Positions 1,785 to 42,830 of a stretch of 42,961 nt of DNA are shown here, in pieces (positions within the stretch are counted from its first letter, which is position 1; each line of letters starts with the position of its first letter). Source of the DNA: a virus; the IMG/VR virus record IMGVR_UViG_3300045988_175038; one strand, written 5' to 3'. The position numbers were made by a program, and so were the translations under genes. The notes below the pieces were generated by a model. It had not been told where the DNA came from. It ran no database searches and saw only the letters and a program-made list of their open reading frames with translations.

Positions 1785-4718
1785 ATGATCAAAGCAGAAC
1801 AAATTTACCAGGCAACCGATGACGGACTGGATATAATCATAGGATTATACCCGGACGCCAAGGAGTGCATACAGAAATACTGTTCGACTGGCACGCCTAA
1901 AAAGCACTTTGCCATTCGTAACGAAAAGACTCCTTCCTGTGCTCTCAAGAAGTTTAAGGACTGCTGGAAGGTAACCGATTTCGGAGGCGAAGGAGTCGCC
2001 GAGTCTCCGATAGACCTCTATATGAAGGAGAAGAATATCGATCGTTTTCCCGATGCCATCCTCAGACTAGCATCGGAGTATAATATTTCCGATGAGTTAA
2101 AGAAGGACGTCAACAAGCCTACGTTCGCCGAGCGTGATGCCACCATCGATGAGAAGGATGGCACTCGTATCTTTGAACTCAACGAGAAGTTTACCGAGGA
2201 CGAACTGAAGGTTCTTGGCCCGAACGTCAAGCAAGACCATGTAGATGCCCTCAACTGGCATTCCGCCAAATGGATAGGCTATGTAAAAGACCGCAAGGTA
2301 AAAATTAAGTACAGCAACGAGCACTACCCTATCTTTATGCGCGAATGCCTGGTTTCTCCTGCCGTAGGAGAGAAACCAGAAGTCAAGTTTTACAAGATTT
2401 ATGAACCGCTTAACTTCAGCAAGCAGTGGAGATTTTCCTACACTCCAGATGGTGTCAAGCCAAAGCAGTATATCAATGGTCTAGCGGAGCTGAAGAAGGC
2501 TTATCATGAGTTCAATGCCCGTGAAATGGCTGAATTCAACAAGACCAACACAGATGATTCCAAGGTATATAAGGAGAAGAAACTTCCAGAAGCCTTCATC
2601 TGCAGCGGTGAGCGTGACAGCCTTTGCTGCCGTTCTCTCGGGTATCACCCATTATGGTTTAATTCCGAAACCTATAAACTCAGTGAAGAAGAGTATAAGG
2701 AAATCATGAAGTATGTAGAGGTACTCTACAATATACCCGATATCGATGAGACTGGTATCGCAAAGGGAACAGAACTTGCGCTCCGCTTCATCGATATACA
2801 TACCATCTGGCTTCCCCAGTGGCTCCGCACCTATCACGACAATCGTGGCAAAGGACGTAAGGATCTCCGCGACTGGATGGAACTCCGCAATACCCGCAAG
2901 GACTTCAGGAACCTCATGACGCTGGCCATGCCGGCACGCTTTTGGGTGAGCAAGCTTAACAAGAAAGCCAACACCTGGGATCATTATATCGATACAGCGT
3001 GTCTGTACAACTTTCTTCGCCTTAACGGCTTCTATACGCTCCATGACGAGAACTCAACCATTACCAGGTACGTTCGTATCACCGGTAATATCGTCAAGCT
3101 CATCACCACGAGAGATATCCGTGAGTTCTGCCGTCAATGGGTCATCGATAGAGCTGAGAAACGTGACATCCTCAACCTGGTACTCAATACCCCGAAACTC
3201 TCAAGCGCAGCACTCGATTCGCTCCAGGAGATAACGCTGGATTTTACCAGCTATACCAATCACTCCCAGCTGTTCTTCTTTCCTCGTGTAAGCGTAGAGG
3301 TAGATAGAAACGGCTTAACAGAGTATCAGCGGGAAGGAAGCTCTCTGAAGAACTACGTATGGCAGGAGAATGTCATCGACCACAACTTCAGAAAACTGGA
3401 CGATATGTTTACCATCACTCGTACCATCGATGAAGATGGTAGACCGAAGTTTGATATCGAGATAAAGAACGTAAGTTCTCATTTCTTCGGCTATTTGATC
3501 AATACTTCCCGAACCTATTGGCGCAAGGAACTGGAATATAGATTCGAGGACAGAAGCATCGACGAGAAGGAGTCATACCATAAAGCGCACCTCTTTGATA
3601 TCGCCGGAGAAGGTCTGGATGAGAAGGAAGTCGCAGAGCAGAAGCAGAACCTGATTAACAAGATATTCACTTTCGGCTATATGCTTCATCACTACAAGTC
3701 ACCATCACGAGCATGGGCGCCTATGGCCATGGATAACAAAATCGGAGAAGACAACGAATGCAATGGCCGTTCAGGTAAAAGTTTCTTCTTCAAGACGCTT
3801 TCCCTGCTGATGAAGACCGTAAAACTGTCCGGACGAAATCCTAAGCTGATGGACAATCCTCACGTCTTCGACCAGGTAACCCAGCACACCCAGATGCTGC
3901 TGCTCGATGACTGCGACCGCTATCTCAACACCGGACTATTCTATGATAATATTACTTCAGATATGACTGTGAATCCAAAGAACAACCAGAGCTTCACCAT
4001 TCCTTTCGAGGACAGTCCGAAGATTGCTTTCACTACCAACTATGTGCCAGCAGACTTCGACCCGTCTTCAGAGGCGAGATTGCTTTATATGGTATTCTCT
4101 GACTATTATCACCAGCGCACCGAGGACAATGACTACCAGGAGACCCGAAGCATACGTGATGACTTCGATAAGGATCTGTTCTCTAAGACATATTCTGAAG
4201 ACGAATGGAATGCAGACATCAACTTTTTCTTGCAGTGCTGCCGATTCTACCTCTCATTGGCCGGAGAACCCATCAAGATACTCCCACCGATGGAGAACAT
4301 CGTGAAGCGCAAGTTCAAGGCTGATATGGGCGTTAACTTCGAGGATTGGGCTAGTTCTTACTTCTCTGAGGAGAGTGGAAGACTGGATCAGTTTATCGTA
4401 AGAGAGAAGGCATTTACCGACTTCAAGCAGTTCTCTGGTCTCAACAAGGCTACTACACAGAGCTTCACCAAGAAGCTGAAGGCTTTTGTTGAACTCTGTC
4501 CTTACGTTGATTCGCTCAACCCTTCAGACCTTTGCAACAGCCAGCATCGCATCATCAGAAGAGATCCTGCGCATCCTGAAGGAAGCCCAGTGGAGATGAT
4601 TTATCTCAGAAGCAAGAAGAGTGATTCTAAAGAAGAGGAAACTCAGGCAAGCAAGGGCGCTCACCAGTCGGAAATCAAATGGAGTAAGGAAGATTTTGAT
4701 AATGTAGAACCTTTCTAG
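1785..4718 (+). CDS. DNA primase/helicase fusion (Toprim-like domain plus P-loop SF3/D5-like NTPase)
   Basis: CSGERDSLCC and NIPDIDETG are Toprim-like acidic motifs. The Walker A motif is NGRSGKSFF and the Walker B motif is MLLLDDCD. The protein is 977 aa and lies in the early region. Confidence 0.8.
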   Translation: MIKAEQIYQATDDGLDIIIGLYPDAKECIQKYCSTGTPKKHFAIRNEKTPSCALKKFKDCWKVTDFGGEGVAESPIDLYMKEKNIDRFPDAILRLASEYNISDELKKDVNKPTFAERDATIDEKDGTRIFELNEKFTEDELKVLGPNVKQDHVDALNWHSAKWIGYVKDRKVKIKYSNEHYPIFMRECLVSPAVGEKPEVKFYKIYEPLNFSKQWRFSYTPDGVKPKQYINGLAELKKAYHEFNAREMAEFNKTNTDDSKVYKEKKLPEAFICSGERDSLCCRSLGYHPLWFNSETYKLSEEEYKEIMKYVEVLYNIPDIDETGIAKGTELALRFIDIHTIWLPQWLRTYHDNRGKGRKDLRDWMELRNTRKDFRNLMTLAMPARFWVSKLNKKANTWDHYIDTACLYNFLRLNGFYTLHDENSTITRYVRITGNIVKLITTRDIREFCRQWVIDRAEKRDILNLVLNTPKLSSAALDSLQEITLDFTSYTNHSQLFFFPRVSVEVDRNGLTEYQREGSSLKNYVWQENVIDHNFRKLDDMFTITRTIDEDGRPKFDIEIKNVSSHFFGYLINTSRTYWRKELEYRFEDRSIDEKESYHKAHLFDIAGEGLDEKEVAEQKQNLINKIFTFGYMLHHYKSPSRAWAPMAMDNKIGEDNECNGRSGKSFFFKTLSLLMKTVKLSGRNPKLMDNPHVFDQVTQHTQMLLLDDCDRYLNTGLFYDNITSDMTVNPKNNQSFTIPFEDSPKIAFTTNYVPADFDPSSEARLLYMVFSDYYHQRTEDNDYQETRSIRDDFDKDLFSKTYSEDEWNADINFFLQCCRFYLSLAGEPIKILPPMENIVKRKFKADMGVNFEDWASSYFSEESGRLDQFIVREKAFTDFKQFSGLNKATTQSFTKKLKAFVELCPYVDSLNPSDLCNSQHRIIRRDPAHPEGSPVEMIYLRSKKSDSKEEETQASKGAHQSEIKWSKEDFDNVEPF

Positions 4719-29515: not shown

Positions 29516-30952
29516 ATGATAGACAAAAAAACTTTCGACAAGGCTCATGACGTTAACACCGTCAACAGCAACCAGTCATTCCTCATGACTGACCAAAAAG
29601 GCAACGTCACCAAGATACCGTTGTCCGCCCTCAAGGCTGACCTCAGCCTGGGCAGCCACACATGGTGCGGCAGAGTGTGGAATACAGCCAACGCCACCCC
29701 CAAGGCGGCCATGGTGGTCGGCGACCTCGATGTCCTCCGTGAGCTGCCGCTCACCCTAGGTCTCGGCGCTTACCTCGTCAAGAATGACCACAGCCGCCGC
29801 AAGCTCGATGCCACAGACCATTACAAGTATGCCACGGGCGAAGCCGCCAAGCTAGACGGTTCACAGGGCCACTACCAGTGGGGATGGGGCAGAGAGTTCT
29901 ACTTCGTCACCAAGGATGTCGGTGGCCTCCATTACGAGATGATCGGTCTCAAGCCTATCCCTGGCGAGTACAACTACAAGATCCCTATCGGCTCCATCTC
30001 CGCCTCAGGCTTCGCCACCATCGAGCGCAGCACAGGCAGACTCGTCAGCTTCATCAACACAGGCTCTGACTACCGAGGAGGCAACAACGATGCCTCCCTT
30101 GACGGCACCAACCGCACCCTCTGCGGCAAGCCGGCAAGCTCGCAGACCACAGAATACTTCCGTGCCGCCGCACGCAAGAATGGCAAGGGGTGGCTCTGCA
30201 CCACCATGCGACACACCACCATCATCGCCGCACTCATAGGGGTCATCATGGGCACACACTACGATCAAGATGCCGTCAAAACCGCCAAAGACTCCAACGG
30301 TCTCTACCAGGGCGGTCTCGGTGCAGGCACCTCAAACTTCAACTGGGATACCTGGGGCACTTACAACTCCTACCGCCCATTCCTCCCCATGTCCGCAGGC
30401 ATCGAGCTGGGCGACAGCGTGGGCGAGACTACCTACGCAGTCAAAAATGACGCTGGCACCACGGTCTACACAGCCAAGGTCTCCAGCTTCTTCGGTCTCA
30501 AGCACGCACAGGGCGGCTACCTCTGGCGCATGATGGATGACGAGCAGGTGCGCATCAACTCCGATACCACAGCCACACACCTCGTCGCACCATCCATCTA
30601 CGGCTCATGGACCATCGGCTCAGCCACGGGCATGAAGGCTTACAGCACATCTCCTGCCACAGGCGAGGGCTACATCACCCGACTCTCCATGGAGCATTTG
30701 GAGAATTTCGCCACGGCCGTCGGAGGCAGCGAGACCACATACTGGACTAGCTATTTCTGGAATACTTCCAAAGCTACGAGCGGTTTCCGTCTCTGCCTGC
30801 GTGGGTGTAACGCTGGCGATGGCGGTCAGTGCGGTTCTTCGACTCTCAACGTTAGCTATGGTGTCTCGTATGCCCACGGTGACGTCGGCGCCGCCCTCTG
30901 CGAAGCAGCATCCGAGTGGTCTGTGGAGCCAGAGTATTACGCAGCTGCCTAA
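29516..30952 (+). CDS. DGR target protein (receptor-binding or tail-fibre candidate) with a C-terminal variable region
   Basis: The VR occupies codons 423-461. The C-terminus reads GFRLCLRGCNAGDGGQCGSSTLNVSYGVSYAHGDVGAALC. It is the last gene of the fibre operon. Confidence 0.85.
   Translation: MIDKKTFDKAHDVNTVNSNQSFLMTDQKGNVTKIPLSALKADLSLGSHTWCGRVWNTANATPKAAMVVGDLDVLRELPLTLGLGAYLVKNDHSRRKLDATDHYKYATGEAAKLDGSQGHYQWGWGREFYFVTKDVGGLHYEMIGLKPIPGEYNYKIPIGSISASGFATIERSTGRLVSFINTGSDYRGGNNDASLDGTNRTLCGKPASSQTTEYFRAAARKNGKGWLCTTMRHTTIIAALIGVIMGTHYDQDAVKTAKDSNGLYQGGLGAGTSNFNWDTWGTYNSYRPFLPMSAGIELGDSVGETTYAVKNDAGTTVYTAKVSSFFGLKHAQGGYLWRMMDDEQVRINSDTTATHLVAPSIYGSWTIGSATGMKAYSTSPATGEGYITRLSMEHLENFATAVGGSETTYWTSYFWNTSKATSGFRLCLRGCNAGDGGQCGSSTLNVSYGVSYAHGDVGAALCEAASEWSVEPEYYAAA
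30782..30898 (+). repeat. DGR variable repeat (VR)
   Basis: It aligns over 117 bp to 31194-31310 with 11 mismatches, all at TR adenines. It is in frame within the target CDS. Confidence 0.9.
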
Positions 30953-31193: not shown

Positions 31194-31310
31194 GGTTTCC
31201 GTCTCTGCCTGCGTGGGTGTAACGCTAACAATGGCGGTCAATGCGGTTCTTCGACTCTCAACGTTAACAATGATGTCTCGAATGCCAACGGTAACATCGG
31301 CGCCGCCCTC
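31194..31310 (+). repeat. DGR template repeat (TR)
   Basis: A noncoding copy of the VR rich in AAY triplets. By my count it has 23 adenines, 11 of which are substituted in the VR. The 88-aa track ORF across it is an artefact. Confidence 0.9.
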
Positions 31311-31557
31311 AACTTAAACACTAGAGACTCTCTTATACAGGGCTATCGTTTGCTACCCTGTTCGAGATAATAGGGTCAGTCCTCGCCCCATGGCGATACA
31401 TACACACACCAAGATTAGCTGGTAGATGATGACAATAAGGTCATCCGGTCGAAGGTTATGAACATTAAAAAAGCAGACACCATTTTTCCAGTGCAGGCTA
31501 TCTGCACAGATACACAGTTTACACAGATTATTACACAGACTTAACACCGCAAGAGTT

Positions 31558-33129
31558 ATGAGAAGGTTTGGCCATATCTCGCCACAGGTCGAGACACTCG
31601 ACAACTTCAGACGTGCATTCTACGACTATGCACGCCAGAAGATGCATCGCCAGTCGGTGCAGCAGTTCGAGGCAAACCTAGACCATAACCTAGACCGCAT
31701 GCTCGGGGCATACCAGTCAGAGTCCTGGCACACATCACCCTATGTGGCAAAAGACATCGACTATCCCAAGCATCGACAGGTCAACAAGCTGCCAGTGATC
31801 GACCACGTGATGCAGCATGCCGCCCTCGCACCTGTCGAGGCAGACCTGCGCCGCACCATCCATGGTCACAGCCCAGCTGGCACCAAGGGCAAGGGCACAC
31901 ATTATTTCTATCAGCTTGTGAAGCGAGACATTTTCTCCTCGCCACAAGCCGAGACCTTCTATTGCCTGCCCATGGATATCCACCACTATTTTCAGTATAT
32001 CGACCACAACCTGCTTAAGGCAGAGTACCGCCGCAAGATCAAAGACCGCAAGCTCCTCGCCTTCATCGACGAGGTGGTGGATAGCTTCAATCCCGGCATC
32101 GTGCTCGGTGTCAAGCTAGCCCAGCTCTTGGGGCAGCTCTTCCTCGCTCGTTTCGACTACCTCGCCATCCGCTGCTTCGACATCCTCCAAGATGCCGACC
32201 GCTTCCGCTATTGGCAGGCTCGCTACGTCAGCGAAATGCTCGTTACATGCCGCACACCTGAGCAAGCTAGACTGCTAAGTGGGGGGGTGAAATTCCTCAA
32301 TGACCGCTTCGAGCGGTTCTGCCAACAGGGGCTCAGCCATTATTATCGCTTCATGGACAACATCTACATCCTCCACGAGGATAAGGTGTTCCTCCGCCTC
32401 ATGGCAGAGCTCTCCGTCATGCACCTCGCCAGAGACTGGCATCTCTCTATCAACAAGTCATGGGGTGTCCATCGCACTTGCGATGGCATCGACTTCTGCG
32501 GTCAGATCATCTACGCTGACCACGCCCTCTTGCGCAAGAGATTCAAGCATGATCTCTGCGCACAGGTGGCAAAACTCCGCAAGCAAGGTTACTCAGAGCG
32601 TCAGATCCAGCTCAAGGCAGCATCACGCCTAGGGCTGGGCATACACGCCAACACAAAAAATCTATATAAGAAAATCGGTATGGAAAGATTTGGTAAACTC
32701 GTAAAGGCACGCCGTGCGCGCGTCCCTTTCGAGGGAATGGAGAAATCACAGCAGCAGTCCATCGAGGACATCATCTGCAGTGAGGGTCAGGATGAGAACA
32801 AGTTCCTCATCCAAGTCATAGATTACAAGGTCGATGACTCGGTCATTGAGAAGGAGACCGTGCAGGTCGAGGAGACTGCCGCAGACGGCAGCACCCACCT
32901 CGTCACCAAGGAGGTGCCCAAGAAGCGCCTCACCCTGCGCTATCGCATCATCGACCACATCGAGGGCACCACAGAGGTCTGGCAAACCACCGACCACTAC
33001 CTCTATACAGGCTCCAAGATCCTGATAGACCAAGCCCTCAACGACTTCTGTCGTGACGAGCTACCATTCTCAACCGTTGTCAAGGAGCTTCACAACAAGT
33101 TCAAAAAGAAGTTCTATAAATTCACATAA
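31558..33129 (+). CDS. DGR-type reverse transcriptase with a non-canonical motif C (FMDN) and a ~149-aa C-terminal extension
   Basis: The RT motifs in order are KLPVIDHVMQHA, AGTKGKGTH, LPMDIHHYF, GIVLGVKLAQLLGQLF, YYRFMDNIYIL and GIDFCGQII. It lies immediately downstream of the TR. Confidence 0.85.
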   Translation: MRRFGHISPQVETLDNFRRAFYDYARQKMHRQSVQQFEANLDHNLDRMLGAYQSESWHTSPYVAKDIDYPKHRQVNKLPVIDHVMQHAALAPVEADLRRTIHGHSPAGTKGKGTHYFYQLVKRDIFSSPQAETFYCLPMDIHHYFQYIDHNLLKAEYRRKIKDRKLLAFIDEVVDSFNPGIVLGVKLAQLLGQLFLARFDYLAIRCFDILQDADRFRYWQARYVSEMLVTCRTPEQARLLSGGVKFLNDRFERFCQQGLSHYYRFMDNIYILHEDKVFLRLMAELSVMHLARDWHLSINKSWGVHRTCDGIDFCGQIIYADHALLRKRFKHDLCAQVAKLRKQGYSERQIQLKAASRLGLGIHANTKNLYKKIGMERFGKLVKARRARVPFEGMEKSQQQSIEDIICSEGQDENKFLIQVIDYKVDDSVIEKETVQVEETAADGSTHLVTKEVPKKRLTLRYRIIDHIEGTTEVWQTTDHYLYTGSKILIDQALNDFCRDELPFSTVVKELHNKFKKKFYKFT

Positions 33130-33135
33130 ACGGTT

Positions 33136-33537
33136 ATGAAAAAGATTTATCCAGCTCGCAAGAGCTTCGTCAAATATGACGATGATCACTTCTTGCTCTA
33201 CCTCGGTGAGCAAAAAATAGAAGACTATCACCCGGAGACAAACACTCCAGGTTCTTCTTCAGACGACAAGTCCAAGGCAGCGGACAAGGGCATCACCGCC
33301 TTCAGCTACGAGGGCACAGAGCCAGACGGCTCCACCAAGATTGCAGCCCAGTCAGCAACCTACGATGACTTTGCCGCAGGTTTGGTTCGCACCAAATACA
33401 GCCAAAACCAGGTCGAGGCCATCCTGTGCAACCATGGCGATGGCAATGAGGAGCACCAAAAGGAGTATGACACCTTCCAGGCTTGGCGCATCCAAGCCAA
33501 GGAGATGGCTCATGAGGTGCTTGAGAGAGCGGTCTAA
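33136..33537 (+). CDS. Hypothetical acidic protein downstream of the RT
   Basis: A 133-aa ORF 6 nt after the RT stop, upstream of the terminator that closes the operon. Confidence 0.5.
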   Translation: MKKIYPARKSFVKYDDDHFLLYLGEQKIEDYHPETNTPGSSSDDKSKAADKGITAFSYEGTEPDGSTKIAAQSATYDDFAAGLVRTKYSQNQVEAILCNHGDGNEEHQKEYDTFQAWRIQAKEMAHEVLERAV

Positions 33538-33627: not shown

Positions 33628-33876
33628 ATGCAGAGAAATACTAAAGAATGGATACAATACGGCTCAGCCATCGTGGTGCTCACCTCTGGCATCGTACTGG
33701 CATACGTCAGCTATTTCACATCACAGATGCGAGATGTCACTGACAACGTGCTCTGGTACTTTGCTCAGACACTCATGTATGCTGGCTCCATCTTTGGCGT
33801 GGCTATCGCCATCGATGCCAAGTTCGAGAATATCAAAAACAAATTTTTTAATCATAAAAACAATGAGACAGATTAA
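33628..33876 (+). CDS. Holin-like protein with two transmembrane helices
   Basis: The hydrophobic segments are AIVVLTSGIVLAYVSYF and LMYAGSIFGVAIAI. It lies directly upstream of the amidase and overlaps it. Confidence 0.65.
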   Translation: MQRNTKEWIQYGSAIVVLTSGIVLAYVSYFTSQMRDVTDNVLWYFAQTLMYAGSIFGVAIAIDAKFENIKNKFFNHKNNETD

Positions 33877-34288
33877 ACGCATTTTCGTTCACTGCACAGC
33901 AGGTTCACAGCGTCAGACCATCGATGACCTCAAGGCTGAGTTCCACCGAAAAGGCTGGTCCAATCCTGGTTATCATTATGTCATCGACACCAATGGTGGT
34001 GTCCACCAACTCCTCGCCATCGAGCATGTCAGCAATGGTGTCCAGGGCTACAACTCCACCGCCATCAACGTGGCCTATATCGGTGGCATCGATGCCGACG
34101 GCAAACCTATCGATAACCGCACACCAGCGCAAAAAGACGCTCTTGTGCTCCTACTCCACAAGCTCAAACAAAAGTTCCCAACGGCTCAGATCATGGGCCA
34201 CCGTGACATCTGGGGCACAGACAAGTCCAACTGGCGCAAAATGTGCCCATGCTTCAACGCTATCCAAGAATATAAAGACATCGCATAA
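33863..34288 (+). CDS. N-acetylmuramoyl-L-alanine amidase endolysin (Amidase_2/PGRP, T7-lysozyme-like)
   Basis: The family pattern is IFVHCTAG...GYHYVID...NSTAINVAYIGG...GHRD...KMCPCF. The first ATG of the track ORF is at 33863. Confidence 0.85.
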   Translation: MRQIKRIFVHCTAGSQRQTIDDLKAEFHRKGWSNPGYHYVIDTNGGVHQLLAIEHVSNGVQGYNSTAINVAYIGGIDADGKPIDNRTPAQKDALVLLLHKLKQKFPTAQIMGHRDIWGTDKSNWRKMCPCFNAIQEYKDIA

Positions 34289-34291
34289 ATT

Positions 34292-34873
34292 ATGAAATCT
34301 CCAAAGACCATCATTTCACTCCTGGCAATCATGCTCATCACGACCATGGTTGCCTTCATCAGTTCGGCTAACAAAAACGAGGCTCTGCAGAGAGAACTCG
34401 ACCGCATGACGCAAAATGTGGCAAACGTCAACTATGACATTCAGTATGACAAAGTCCAAGACTCCCTGCCTGTGGCTCAAAACAATGCACTGCAGGTGAA
34501 ATATGACGAGCTTCAAAAACTCCACCTCACCGACGCCCAGCTCATCAAAGACCTCAAGGTTCGACTCAAAGATGCACAGACCATCCATACAGTCTCATCT
34601 GCCACGACCGACACAGTGCCCATCTCACCAGTCCCAGAGACTGCCGATTCCGTCTTCTCATACAGAGACCGATGGCTACAGCTTCACATCGACATCCCTG
34701 CCAGACAATGCCAATATACCGCCTACGATAGCCTCACGACCATCGTCAGCCGCACCTACAAGCACAAGTTTCTGTGGTGGCGCTGGGGGACAAAAGGCTA
34801 TAAGGTTCAAATCGTCAACTTCAACCCTCATTCCAGGATTAACTACTCGAGATACATAGATGTAGTTAAATAA
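34292..34873 (+). CDS. Membrane-anchored coiled-coil protein, spanin-like lysis accessory
   Basis: The N-terminal TM segment is IISLLAIMLITTMVAFISS, followed by a helical region. It lies immediately after the endolysin. Confidence 0.45.
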   Translation: MKSPKTIISLLAIMLITTMVAFISSANKNEALQRELDRMTQNVANVNYDIQYDKVQDSLPVAQNNALQVKYDELQKLHLTDAQLIKDLKVRLKDAQTIHTVSSATTDTVPISPVPETADSVFSYRDRWLQLHIDIPARQCQYTAYDSLTTIVSRTYKHKFLWWRWGTKGYKVQIVNFNPHSRINYSRYIDVVK

Positions 34874-41666: not shown

Positions 41667-42830
41667 CTAAAGCCCACCTTTAAAGTGCTTAGTCTCCTCG
41701 TTTACTTTCATCTGGTTCTTGATATAGCGATTAGTCACAGATATATCAGAGTGTCGTGCCTGCTCCTTAGCAACAACTATACCTTGAGCATTGGCCAAGT
41801 CTCTAATGCCGGTATCTTTCAAACTGTAGAACTGATACTCCTTAGGAAAGCCTATGGCATCACGCATCTTGCCCCACTCTACTCGCAACTGATTATAAGC
41901 TGCTCTCTTTTCACCAGGTTTCAGACTCTTTCCGAAAATGTAGCAATGGCTAGGATGCTCGAAGATCTTCAGTTCTATCATCAGCTTCAGGATTTCATCG
42001 TTAAGGGCAACCATTCCGTCCTTGCGGTTCTTACTGATGGCAGAACTGATAAAGACAGTCTGATTCTTGATAGATACATCTCCGATCTTTATCTGGGTCA
42101 ACTCATTCGGACGGATGAAAGTATAATACTCAAAGAGACAAGCCAGAAGGAAATGCTTGTCATGAGTATAGAGATAATCCTTCATCTTCTTGAGAGCTCC
42201 AGGAGTCAATGGATTCCGGAACTTCTCTGTTTGCGCAATATTGCGAATATCGATGGCAGGATTCTCGGAAATATACTTTCGATCCATCAGCCAAGTACCG
42301 AACGAGACAAACCAGGAACGATAGTTATTCCTGGTTGTAGCTGATACATCACGATCATACATCAGATGATCCAGGAAGTCAATGGCAAAGGCTCGGTCTA
42401 TCTGATAAGCATATTTGATACTCCTACACTCCTCTATGAAGGTTTCGAGCATCTTGAGGCGGCTGAGATAGTCAATAGAGGTCTTTTCCTTCATCGACTT
42501 TTTATTAGTCATCGACTTAATATAATCTCTATATCTACTAAAAATTATTGGTATTTCCGTAAATTGGCGCGACTGGTCAGCATTCACCCATGGGTTCCAT
42601 CCTGCTGTCAATTTCGCAGTAATATTGTGAATAAGAAGACTGCCCATCATACGCTTTTTATGATCAGACTTATACTTGTTGAGCATATACTTCTTGCGCT
42701 TCATCACACCGGAAACTGGGTCACGAGCATAAAAGTCAACATACCAGTACCCGCCCTTGGTATGCAACACAGGAAGCGTGAATCCTACTATTTCACGCGA
42801 ACTCAAAAAATCGATTTCTTTTACATTCAT
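41667..42830 (-). CDS. int: Tyrosine recombinase / phage integrase
   Basis: The C-terminal catalytic pattern is FIRPNEL...SLKDTGIRD...ARHSDISVTNRYIK (R, K, HxxR, Y). It is 387 aa and its start lies 82 bp from the right terminal repeat. Confidence 0.9.
   Translation of the reverse strand: MNVKEIDFLSSREIVGFTLPVLHTKGGYWYVDFYARDPVSGVMKRKKYMLNKYKSDHKKRMMGSLLIHNITAKLTAGWNPWVNADQSRQFTEIPIIFSRYRDYIKSMTNKKSMKEKTSIDYLSRLKMLETFIEECRSIKYAYQIDRAFAIDFLDHLMYDRDVSATTRNNYRSWFVSFGTWLMDRKYISENPAIDIRNIAQTEKFRNPLTPGALKKMKDYLYTHDKHFLLACLFEYYTFIRPNELTQIKIGDVSIKNQTVFISSAISKNRKDGMVALNDEILKLMIELKIFEHPSHCYIFGKSLKPGEKRAAYNQLRVEWGKMRDAIGFPKEYQFYSLKDTGIRDLANAQGIVVAKEQARHSDISVTNRYIKNQMKVNEETKHFKGGL

Follow-up and report, generated by a model that had tools for sequence, protein, structure and literature searches.

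Can a DGR reverse transcriptase (RT) diversify its target gene when the second catalytic aspartate of its YxDD box is an asparagine? This question is raised by a locus in the IMG/VR virus record IMGVR_UViG_3300045988_175038, and we have analysed the whole stretch of 42,961 nt, referred to here as the window, by computational means. A sequence-only reading had recognized an RT with FMDN in place of YxDD, AQ in place of SQ and an extra C-terminal domain, together with an apparently recently mutagenized variable region, and had left it undecided whether the element has lately died or the RT is functional with a changed active site. The following features of the locus are concerned:

29516..30952, + strand: DGR target gene encoding a phage tail protein, with the variable region at its C-terminus (phrog_5302 'tail protein', E 6.7e-45)
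30782..30898, + strand: variable region (VR), 117 nt, direct repeat of the template repeat with 91% identity
31194..31310, + strand: template repeat (TR), 117 nt with 23 adenines, recognized as a repeat pair with the VR
31379..31480, + strand: structured spacer RNA between TR and RT, Rfam RF03020 RT-17 RNA (cmscan)
31558..33129, + strand: DGR reverse transcriptase with fused C-terminal domain, 523 aa (phmmer, Foldseek, PHROG)

The closest PDB sequence match of the RT is Bordetella bRT (8ub7, E 6e-10 by phmmer), and the best fold match is the same enzyme (8ub7_A, E 1.5e-16, TMt 0.76 by Foldseek), which places the window protein in the DGR RT clade. It also matches phrog_1423, Reverse transcriptase, in PHROG (E 2.7e-52). 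A Pfam scan of the protein gave no match, and the only match in NCBIfam was a sub-threshold one to group II intron RTs. Because Pfam is blind to this RT, Pfam-based surveys may undercount what is an abundant family of gut-phage enzymes. Megablast of the locus against a phage collection found no match; tblastn against the phage collection returned one close unannotated record, the other matches being distant phage DGR RTs, and for about 79 other phage DGR RTs the alignment is confined to residues 1 to about 375. We conclude that ORF 31558-33129, the sole RT in the window (host genomes were outside the scope), very probably encodes a DGR RT that is active and whose motif C is non-canonical. Its activity is inferred from natural sequence variation, which is also shaped by selection, and there is no biochemistry behind it.

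This conclusion depends on the correct assignment of the motifs, which lie in the RT gene as follows:

31975..31977, + strand: motif A catalytic Asp, D140, in MDIHHYF (invariant in a 99-sequence alignment; aligns with bRT D138)
32104..32124, + strand: motif B, or motif 4, LGVKLAQ (CTC GGT GTC AAG CTA GCC CAG)
32164..32328, + strand: helical segment, residues 203-257 (about 54 aa), that the family has inserted between motifs B and C (loop lengths, AF2)
32350..32361, + strand: motif C, F-M-D-N, residues F265-M266-D267-N268 (TTC ATG GAC AAC)

The catalytic residues of bRT are D138, D215 and D216 (bioRxiv 10.1101/2023.10.23.563531). In the phmmer alignment to the PDB, 'shyyRFMDNiyil' of the query lies over 'rhwARYMDDivvl' of bRT, with D267 in the position of D215 and N268 in that of D216. 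The AF2 model of the RT (pLDDT 88.4 overall, about 97 at motif C) puts D267 and N268 at the turn of the beta-hairpin E261-265/E268-273, the usual geometry of motif C, and ADD-bearing relatives (P0083 with RLADD, and canonical RYADD enzymes) share the alignment columns of FMDN. The replacement of the second Asp by Asn, first noticed by eye, is thus borne out by the bRT alignment, the predicted hairpin and the alignment of relatives. Could motif C nevertheless be misassigned and the true YxDD lie elsewhere in the RT? An overlapping second HMMER alignment does set 'ARYMDD' of bRT on 'ARYVSE' at residues 221-226. However, these residues are inside a confidently predicted helix, and some relatives have Ala at position 226, for which reasons 'ARYVSEM' (221-227) was rejected as motif C. 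Moreover, the entire RT protein contains no YxDD, whereas FMDN occupies the hairpin turn and aligns with the ADD or MDD of relatives and canonical DGR RTs. A YxDD elsewhere would have refuted the sequence-only reading; we consider this virtually ruled out, and the FMDN assignment stands.

Is the asparagine peculiar to this phage? Among the loci that we tabulated, F-x-D-N is present in 70 of 76 RT matches, down to 28% identity, and the Asn codon is AAC 43 times and AAT 24 times. In the clade as a whole the second residue is mostly Asn, with Gly in some members and Asp in a few basal ones, while canonical short-loop DGR RTs have xDD in 88 of the 94 sampled. Throughout the 99-sequence alignment, D140 and D267 do not vary. 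Judging from these comparisons, purifying selection maintains F-x-D-N as a hallmark of the family. The chemistry that this implies is unorthodox for an RT: both aspartates of YxDD were 100% conserved in 155 DGR RTs, in which Phe for Tyr was common (14%; PMC3521204), and the D185N/D186N double mutant of HIV-1 RT is dead (PMC5498913). The window enzyme does not meet the criterion of a YxDD box with both aspartates and, since Asn in place of the second Asp is a real departure, we class it as a variant and not as an ordinary DGR RT. Our full-text literature search found no description of a DGR RT with DN in motif C, and no report of DG in this position was found either.

How might such a site work? 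It retains the motif A Asp (D140) and the first Asp of motif C (D267), the second motif C carboxylate being lost. No acidic or histidine residue that consistently compensates for N268 was found among the relatives. E226 was rejected as a candidate, being Ala in some of them, and so was the HH of motif A, which the DD member P0083 has and the Alistipes DN subclade lacks. From the VR variation described below, it follows that the clade does not need a carboxylate, or third acidic ligand, at the second position of motif C, although no biochemistry is available and the catalytic chemistry of the FMDN site is inferred. A natural GDN motif C is found in the L-protein RNA polymerases of mononegaviruses, an example showing that two-metal catalysis does not in every case need a second acidic residue. 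These are right-hand polymerases with Asp-Asn in motif C like the window RT, but they are RNA-dependent RNA polymerases and not RTs, and the kinship is at the level of the palm fold only.

The alternative left by the sequence-only reading is that the RT is dead or recently inactivated, the VR diversity being left over from a YxDD ancestor. The exchange of the second Asp for Asn, together with D185N, is what was used to kill HIV-1 RT, and the DiGReF survey, besides finding the aspartates invariant, reported DGRs with dead RTs but intact repeats (PMC3521204). The repeats themselves tell against this alternative. In the window, TR and VR differ at 11 positions and 11 of 11 are TR adenines. We then compared copies of the same phage in 18 IMG/VR loci, 14 of which hold the TR, and the RTs in these loci are RFMDN. 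The TR is 100% identical in 14/14, while the VRs of the window and 16 IMG/VR copies exist in 16 distinct versions. Of their substitutions relative to the TR, 167/170 are at TR adenines (A>G 89, A>T 61, A>C 17 for the changes at adenines); all 23 of the 23 TR adenines are altered, and about 45% of adenines are changed per VR. Because the TR is identical while the 16 VRs differ at adenines, diversification must have occurred after these near-identical genomes split, and the VR had been rightly described as recently mutagenized.

The same pattern was seen in distant relatives. Three contigs carry the same RT, P0040 (RFADN, 50% identity), and have a single TR but three VRs, the changes being exclusively at A, and for P0120 (RFVDN, 38% identity) 15/15 changes are at A. 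In the loci L109-L112 the RTs are at least 99% identical, all have RFVDG and share one common TR; their four VRs carry 10-14 changes each, every one at A. Overall, a TR/VR pair with at least 80% of its mismatches at A was present in 61 of the 80 loci scanned. Frozen VRs in the relatives, which would have counted against a working enzyme, are therefore not what is found: RFMDN copies, P0040 and P0120 all diversify at A, and the RFADN and RFVDG lineages match the window in this respect. Moreover, Asn is kept with synonymous codon turnover across a family spanning 28-100% identity, the remaining catalytic motifs are intact and the ORFs are of full length. As far as can be told from sequences alone, the element is not dead and is still diversifying its VRs in nature. 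A dead RT appears very improbable to us, and of the two possibilities an altered active site is favoured.

It may be asked whether the RT is inactive and a canonical DGR RT of the host, or of a co-resident element, mutagenizes the VR in trans. Bacteroidales genomes often contain several DGRs (bioRxiv 10.1101/2024.11.15.621889), and host genomes were outside our screen. However, the window has no second RT, and a dead gene would not be expected to hold more than 500 open codons and invariant motifs in over 100 lineages. In addition, DGR RTs act on their own TR and spacer RNA, and here RT-17 RNA, TR and this RT type are inherited together in genera ranging from Segatella to Alistipes. The RT-17 RNA was detected by cmscan over the full model with 69.8 bits (gathering score 40.4, E 5e-13), and it is found in the equivalent place in relatives (L020, L024, L029, L052, L065 and L083). 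Mutagenesis in trans is hardly credible in our opinion, and we return to an RT that is itself active. By analogy with RT-10/Sp of BPP-1 (PMC5737381), the RT-17 RNA is presumed to be the element that primes cDNA synthesis and recruits the RT. In the first step, TR and the adjoining spacer RNA would be transcribed together; the RT would then copy the TR into cDNA with misincorporation opposite adenines, and this cDNA would replace the VR at the 3' end of the tail-protein gene. The VR stops 54 nt short of the stop codon of this gene, whose product has no match in Pfam; a DGR target is expected to be a binding protein with a C-type lectin or Ig fold.

Two other parts of the polymerase deserve attention. 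In LGVKLAQ, Ala replaces the Ser of [ILV]GxxxSQ while L, G and Q are kept, so that the motif 4 signature of DGR RTs is counted as met. The replacement is real, but it is not as exceptional as it had seemed: AQ is on record as one of the minor variants among functional DGRs, the signature varying in 15 of 155 (PMC3521204), and many relatives of the window RT have SQ. G184, K186 and Q189 of this motif are invariant, and position 188 is S, A or T in the relatives. The second part is the insertion between motifs B and C. The spacing is 53-54 residues in this RT family compared with about 7 in canonical DGR RTs, and the AF2 model fills the insertion with helices at 206-257, with high confidence.

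Beyond the polymerase, the RT gene continues into two further features:

32683..32733, + strand: basic patch after the thumb, ERFGKLVKARRARVPFE, pI 11.6
32773..33126, + strand: C-terminal beta-rich domain, residues ~406-523 (AF2 of the domain alone, pLDDT 84.6)

The alignment to bRT stops at residue 372 of 523, and the extra 149 or so residues noted earlier are therefore real (about 145-150). An extension as such does not set this enzyme apart, since about 20% of DGR RTs are likewise extended, by as much as about 150 aa (PMC5758913), and the basic patch matches a positively charged patch of about 20 aa described after region 7 of DGR RTs (PMC3521204). With AQ in motif B and C-terminal extensions both already documented, it is for the DN/DG motif C that we found no earlier report.

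The C-terminal module is kept at full length down to about 28% identity. In many Prevotella relatives it is either an overlapping ORF or out of frame behind a poly-G tract. A free-standing ORF, which begins at an ATG of its own and overlaps the stop codon of the RT gene, was seen in L060, L078, L098, L101, L103-L106 and L109-L112, and in other loci the module is out of frame behind tracts of G8-G13. Metagenomes scanned for the sequences flanking the G tract of one relative yielded 0 matches; a looser G-tract pattern gave matches in viral contigs. The module was encountered only with, or directly after, this RT type (198 matches). These gene arrangements show it to be a separable module of about 120 aa, which is fused to the RT in the window and in many relatives is encoded by an overlapping gene or joined to the RT via a G tract of variable length. 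We infer that it is the family's own accessory subunit.

What could this subunit do? Its model consists of a long beta-hairpin, a small sheet and one helix, and it is mildly acidic (pI 5.6), unlike Avd. No sequence match was found in Pfam, PHROG or the PDB. A fold search of the PDB gave nothing significant (best E 0.23), although OB folds of SSB and MCM proteins ranked high in it; in BFVD the best match had E 8.8e-4 and several phage SSBs were marginal at E 2e-3 to 8e-2 (TM 0.35-0.57). The TM scores of the best fold matches, 0.4-0.57, are marginal too, and hhalign against E. coli SSB returned a probability of 0.2%. The folds that recur, weakly, are SSB/OB proteins and the C-termini of other viral RTs. 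The C-terminal half of the domain also has weak profile similarity to the extensions of the canonical DGR RTs P0196 (E 2.9e-7) and P0155 (E 1.5e-6). It is possible that the RT is active and the domain has no part in cDNA synthesis, serving instead in regulation, oligomerization or docking to a phage or host protein. This would suit its acidity, the lack of a significant sequence match to nucleic-acid-binding families with only marginal fold matches, and its attachment to the RT, which in relatives is apparently switchable via the G tract, as fits a regulatory role. On the other hand, the domain is tied to this RT type and found nowhere else among the 198 matches, the RT family lacks Avd, and there are the recurring folds and the likeness to P0196 and P0155. 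Such an unrelated role seems unlikely to us, but it cannot be dismissed. We suppose that the module probably handles nucleic acid or the template-primer complex, a function that is inferred and only weakly supported.

Could the module take the place of Avd? None of the 42 small ORFs of the window matched the Avd, HRDC or MutS-like families of Pfam, and Avd was found neither in the neighbours of the cassette nor beside L020-L025 and L109 (four diverse loci). For a Pribosyltran match in Pfam, no underlying ORF was found by a regex search. Avd is thus absent from the window, although a divergent Avd that is invisible to Pfam is not excluded; Avd is also not universal, about 74% of DGRs having it. 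Whether the module substitutes for Avd we regard as evenly balanced. A tentative joint reading, to which we give a little less credit than that, is of a Bacteroidales DGR lineage in which the RT site has two carboxylates (with Asn or Gly at the remaining position) and Avd is replaced by a beta-rich subunit that may be fused, separate, or switched on and off via a slippery G tract. Apart from this joint reading, the locus is best explained as an active Avd-less DGR of a temperate Segatella (Prevotella) copri phage, and its RT belongs to a deep Bacteroidales clade of DGR RTs.

Compared with the BPP-1 DGR (bRT-Avd with TR-Sp RNA; 8ub7), the window has the same set of a target gene with C-terminal VR, TR, structured spacer RNA and RT, and in both the mutagenesis is adenine-specific with a density of about 45-50% (for BPP-1, bioRxiv 10.1101/2024.11.15.621889). 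The two RTs have in common the Asp of motif A and the first Asp of motif C, and motif 4 keeps its Gly and Gln in both. However, they are only about 20% identical, bRT has YMDD and SQ where the window RT has FMDN and AQ, and the latter has in addition the 54-aa insertion between motifs B and C and the extra domain of about 120 aa, without Avd. The spacer RNA is RT-17 in the window and RT-10 in BPP-1. Closer in organization are the Avd-less DGRs (Architecture A; Lineage 3/3A of Wu et al. 2018, from Bacteroides and relatives), which likewise have no accessory gene and Bacteroidales hosts. Wu et al. describe RTs with an extension of at most about 150 aa after the thumb and without a recognized motif, as in the window RT, but DN/DG in motif C, the 54-aa insertion and the extension as a separate ORF are unmentioned (PMC5758913). 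The DGRs of the Bacteroides hankyphage and crAss-like phages also belong to gut Bacteroidales phages and diversify tail proteins. The RTs of these phages match the window RT with 24-28% identity over its residues 1 to about 375 but, unlike it, end after the thumb and are among the canonical short-loop enzymes.

The second Asp of YxDD is regarded as catalytically essential in RTs and, according to the earlier survey, does not vary in DGR RTs. That targets are diversified in a large natural clade whose RTs have Asn or Gly in this position indicates that the residue is dispensable in at least one RT scaffold, and the DD, DN and DG relatives offer a comparison set for metal binding, fidelity and adenine misincorporation. 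DGRs are being engineered for targeted mutagenesis in E. coli, where bRT has to be supplied together with Avd. A simpler tool could come from an RT that is independent of Avd and has its accessory domain fused to it and, if the tentative joint reading holds true, the window enzyme would be a naturally self-sufficient, single-polypeptide adenine mutator.

One more gene directly follows the RT:

33136..33537, + strand: small acidic ORF, 133 aa, directly 3' of the RT (syntenic in relatives; membership in the DGR not established)

It has no match in Pfam or PHROG and was rejected as an Avd, being acidic (pI 5.05) and without a family match. ORFs of 124-129 aa are present at the equivalent position in L020, L023, L024 and L109.

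No Pfam family was recognised in the reverse transcriptase (RT) protein, and NCBIfam gave only a weak match to group II intron RTs. Among solved structures, its top sequence match in HMMER was bRT, the RT of the Bordetella phage BPP-1 diversity-generating retroelement (DGR) (E 6e-10), and the AlphaFold2 (AF2) model (pLDDT 88.4) had the same enzyme, 8ub7_A, as its best fold match in Foldseek (E 1.5e-16, TMt 0.76). The features of the element are as follows.

29516-30952, upstream of the RT: tail-protein gene bearing the variable region (VR), phrog_5302
30782-30898: VR, 117 nt, ending 54 nt before the end of the tail gene coding sequence
31194-31310: template repeat (TR), repeating the VR with 11 differences
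31379-31480: RT-17 RNA (Rfam RF03020; 69.8 bits against a gathering score of 40.4, E 5e-13), in the spacer from TR to RT
31558-33129, plus strand: DGR RT, open reading frame of 523 aa
32104-32124, plus strand: motif 4 (motif B), translated as LGVKLAQ
32350-32361, plus strand: motif C, F265-M266-D267-N268, codons TTC ATG GAC AAC

HMMER pairs the segment shyyRFMDNiyil of the RT with rhwARYMDDivvl of bRT, placing D267 at D215 and N268 at D216; the catalytic aspartates of bRT are D138/D215/D216 (bioRxiv 10.1101/2023.10.23.563531). In the AF2 model D267-N268 lies at the turn of a hairpin (E261-265/E268-273). A second HMMER alignment set ARYVSE (residues 221-226) against ARYMDD of bRT, and this was the only other candidate for motif C; we rejected it as the active site because the segment is helical and position 226 is Ala in some relatives. 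The alignment to bRT ends at residue 372, and those of approximately 79 phage DGR RTs are confined to residues 1 to about 375. The sequence-only reading had reported FMDN in motif C, AQ for SQ in motif B and an additional C-terminal stretch, and all three are borne out.

How unusual is this active site? In a survey of 155 DGR RTs both aspartates were 100% conserved and Phe replaced the Tyr of the catalytic box in 14%; the SQ dipeptide varied in 15/155 elements, and the variants, among them AQ, still showed adenine changes (PMC3521204). Since Phe and AQ are recorded variants, Asn is the only real departure; of the two hallmark departures claimed initially, that in motif C stands while AQ does not. 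Full-text literature searches turned up no account of DN in motif C of a DGR RT. Mononegavirus polymerases function with a GDN motif C, so there is a precedent outside RTs for a two-carboxylate palm. The HIV-1 RT double mutant D185N/D186N is inactive (PMC5498913).

Could the element be recently dead, as the sequence-only reading had allowed, or does the RT work with its altered motif? All 11 differences between VR and TR fall at adenines of the TR, the downstream copy, which constitutes the VR/TR signature. Using a 27-mer from the constant 5' part of the repeat, we fetched 18 IMG/VR loci of the same phage. The TR was 100% identical in all 14 that hold it, and 16 distinct VRs were found, in which 167/170 substitutions lie at TR adenines (A>G 89, A>T 61, A>C 17); the remaining three sit at the 3' edge of a single locus whose VR boundary differs. 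Each of the 23 TR adenines was changed at least 3 times, about 45% of adenines being altered per VR, and the loci that include the RT carry RFMDN. As far as sequences can tell, such a pattern among near-identical genomes could not come from a frozen relic. The impression of recent mutagenesis therefore holds and a recent death of the element does not; we regard the RT as very probably active as encoded, although this is natural sequence variation, from which catalysis is inferred.

Three of the fetched loci deserve mention in their own right. In L004 (4361-4477) and L017 (9106-9222) the VR equals the TR over all 117 nt with zero adenines changed, which is very unlikely following mutagenic homing and could reflect gene conversion, non-mutagenic homing or repeat collapse during assembly. 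In L003 (minus strand) the VR, at about 2616-2700 on the reverse complement, is missing 37 internal nt and lies at a spacing of 375 from the TR as against 412, which would frameshift the C-terminus of the tail protein.

The altered motif is also a property of a family. A search of 5.8 billion proteins gave 219 relatives with 37-99% identity, and across an alignment of 99 sequences D140 and D267 never vary and F265 and N268 almost never do, the only exception being the relative P0083 with RLADD. Scanning one genome per species yielded 74 loci with identity down to 28%, nearly all from Bacteroidales or other Bacteroidota (Segatella, Prevotella, Bacteroides, Phocaeicola, Alistipes, Muribaculaceae, Paludibacteraceae and others). 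Among 76 RT hits from these and the relative loci L020-L025, motif C was F-x-D-N in 70, RLADD in 2 and RYADD in 4, the last being short canonical enzymes without the extension. The Asn is encoded by AAC 43 times and by AAT 24 times in distinct contexts, the mark of purifying selection and not of a fresh mutation.

A frozen VR in such relatives would have counted against activity, but in 61/80 loci at least 80% of the mismatches between TR and VR are at adenine, and most of the others are truncated. The RT P0040 (RFADN) is identical in three contigs with one common TR and three VRs, and P0120 (RFVDN) has 15/15 VR changes at A. In the relative loci L109-L112, which are at least 99% identical, the RT (2770-4020) reads RFVDG (GAT GGA), with Gly in place of the second Asp, and one TR accompanies four VRs with 10-14 changes each, all at adenines. 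Elements that look active can therefore have Asn, Gly or Asp at the second position. We found no earlier account in the literature of DGR RTs that lack the second aspartate and yet, with Asn or Gly in its place, show signs of activity in nature. In a further set of relatives (L063-L085 and L093; Alistipes, Paludibacteraceae, Cryptobacteroides), motif 4 is IGLKIST, Thr replacing the Gln of the SQ signature (Q187 of bRT, which contacts the incoming nucleotide). The VR differences there are still adenine-only (14-15 of 14-15 in, for example, L065, L073 and L083), and ST is absent from the motif 4 variants listed in the DiGReF survey (PMC3521204).

Among the best 150 representatives at 50% identity from 1.84 billion proteins, canonical short-loop DGR-like RTs were xDD in 88 cases and xDN in 6, whereas the family with a 54-aa insertion had 6 xDD and 11 xDN. 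In a rough neighbour-joining tree of low resolution the insertion-plus-extension family is monophyletic, with its DD members placed either at the base of two DN clades or among them, and the D-to-N change may therefore have occurred more than once. The insertion itself (32164-32328, residues 203-257) starts W-x-x-R-Y-V-[ST]-[DE] followed by PEQ, and HMMER aligned it to the motif C segment of bRT (HWARYMDD...PEE); the motif C region may have been duplicated internally and then degenerated, or the likeness may be a coincidence.

The C-terminal part is conserved, given that nearly all 219 relatives are 510-550 aa long. Residues 376-392 form a basic patch (pI 11.6) matching one described at the end of DGR RTs (PMC3521204), followed by an acidic linker of low model confidence and a mildly acidic (pI 5.6), beta-rich domain at about 406-523. 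Modelled from its own alignment (AF2, pLDDT 84.6), the domain has a long hairpin, more strands and one helix. It had no Pfam, PHROG or PDB sequence match and no significant fold match in the PDB (best E 0.23, OB folds of SSB and MCM on top), and hhalign against E. coli SSB was negative. Among viral predicted structures, weak matches recurred to single-strand-binding proteins of phages and to the C-terminal ends of two viral RTs (E 9e-4 to 1e-1, TM 0.35-0.57). Its profile also weakly matches extensions of some canonical YxDD DGR RTs (P0196, E 2.9e-7; P0155, E 1.5e-6), in line with the published finding that about 20% of DGR RTs are extended, by up to approximately 150 aa (PMC5758913). The additional domain is real; the statement that DGR RTs normally end at the thumb was too general. 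M375 (32680-32682), where the basic patch starts, is invariant in 99 relatives, and database proteins of 149-153 aa (P0132, P0271, P0272) begin exactly at its equivalent; it could be an internal start, or these could be gene calls on truncated contigs.

The strongest clue to the role of the domain is a genetic one. Many Prevotella relatives have an RT frame that stops just past a G8-G13 tract (at the position corresponding to residue 405), with the domain resuming in another frame. The 8-13 G lie exactly at the junction in L042-L062, L078, L096, L098 and L101-L112, all outside the window, with TAA or TGA immediately 3'. Depending on tract length, the domain is fused, falls out of frame or is read from its own overlapping ATG. 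Such an ATG overlaps the RT stop (ATGTTAACG9TGA or TAA) in L060, L078, L098, L101, L103-L106 and L109-L112, where a 140-aa gene is called on many contigs; in other loci the domain has no start codon. The near-identical phages L102, L107 and L108 have G8, G9 and G10, with fusion at G9 only. The tract could be a means of phase variation or programmed slippage controlling the DGR. That the domain is sometimes fused and sometimes an adjacent gene is good evidence that it works together with the RT. As the family has no Avd, the accessory protein of many DGRs, we infer that the module would be its accessory subunit, its binding partner not being established; whether it substitutes for Avd is an inference for which the chances seem even. 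Our searches found no prior description of a fused or split accessory module of a DGR RT.

The RT belongs to the DGR clade and the TR/VR differences are adenine-specific, as the definition of a DGR requires. The VR lies near the end of a tail gene, and a spacer RNA is present, its part in priming being presumed by analogy; by inference the element works in the manner of the BPP-1 DGR. Five features set it apart from the canonical description: FMDN in motif C, an insertion of 54 aa, the extra C-terminal domain, the failure to find Avd, and the spacer RNA, which is RT-17 instead of RT-10. DGRs without Avd, among them a Bacteroides lineage, have been recorded before, as have C-terminal extensions (PMC5758913). 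RT-17 is one of the RT-associated RNA motifs of Weinberg et al., who showed the spacer between TR and RT in BPP-1 to be the site of RT-10 and proposed that DGRs elsewhere use other RT motifs (PMC5737381). The 42 small ORFs of the window and the cassette neighbours gave no match to an Avd, HRDC or MutS-like family, and no second RT was found in the window.

The contig L027, from a metagenome-assembled genome, encodes an RT whose protein sequence is 100% identical, and the phage belongs to Segatella copri. Directly downstream of the RT is a small acidic ORF (33136-33537; 133 aa, pI 5.05, no family). The synteny is conserved, since ORFs of similar size (124-129 aa) occupy the equivalent place in the distant relatives L020, L023, L024 and L109. 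Between the DGR and a 1446-aa tape-measure-like gene lies a lysis block (33628-34873) with a small membrane ORF, Amidase_2 (33734-34288) and DUF6549 (34292-34873). Together with a tyrosine integrase on the minus strand at the window end (41667-42830), it suggests a temperate Segatella copri phage. The lysis enzymes differ in protein-level relatives of the phage, for example Amidase_3 in L109. One of the 42 small ORFs has a Pribosyltran Pfam match (E 1.8e-6) and a weak one to PRTase-CE.
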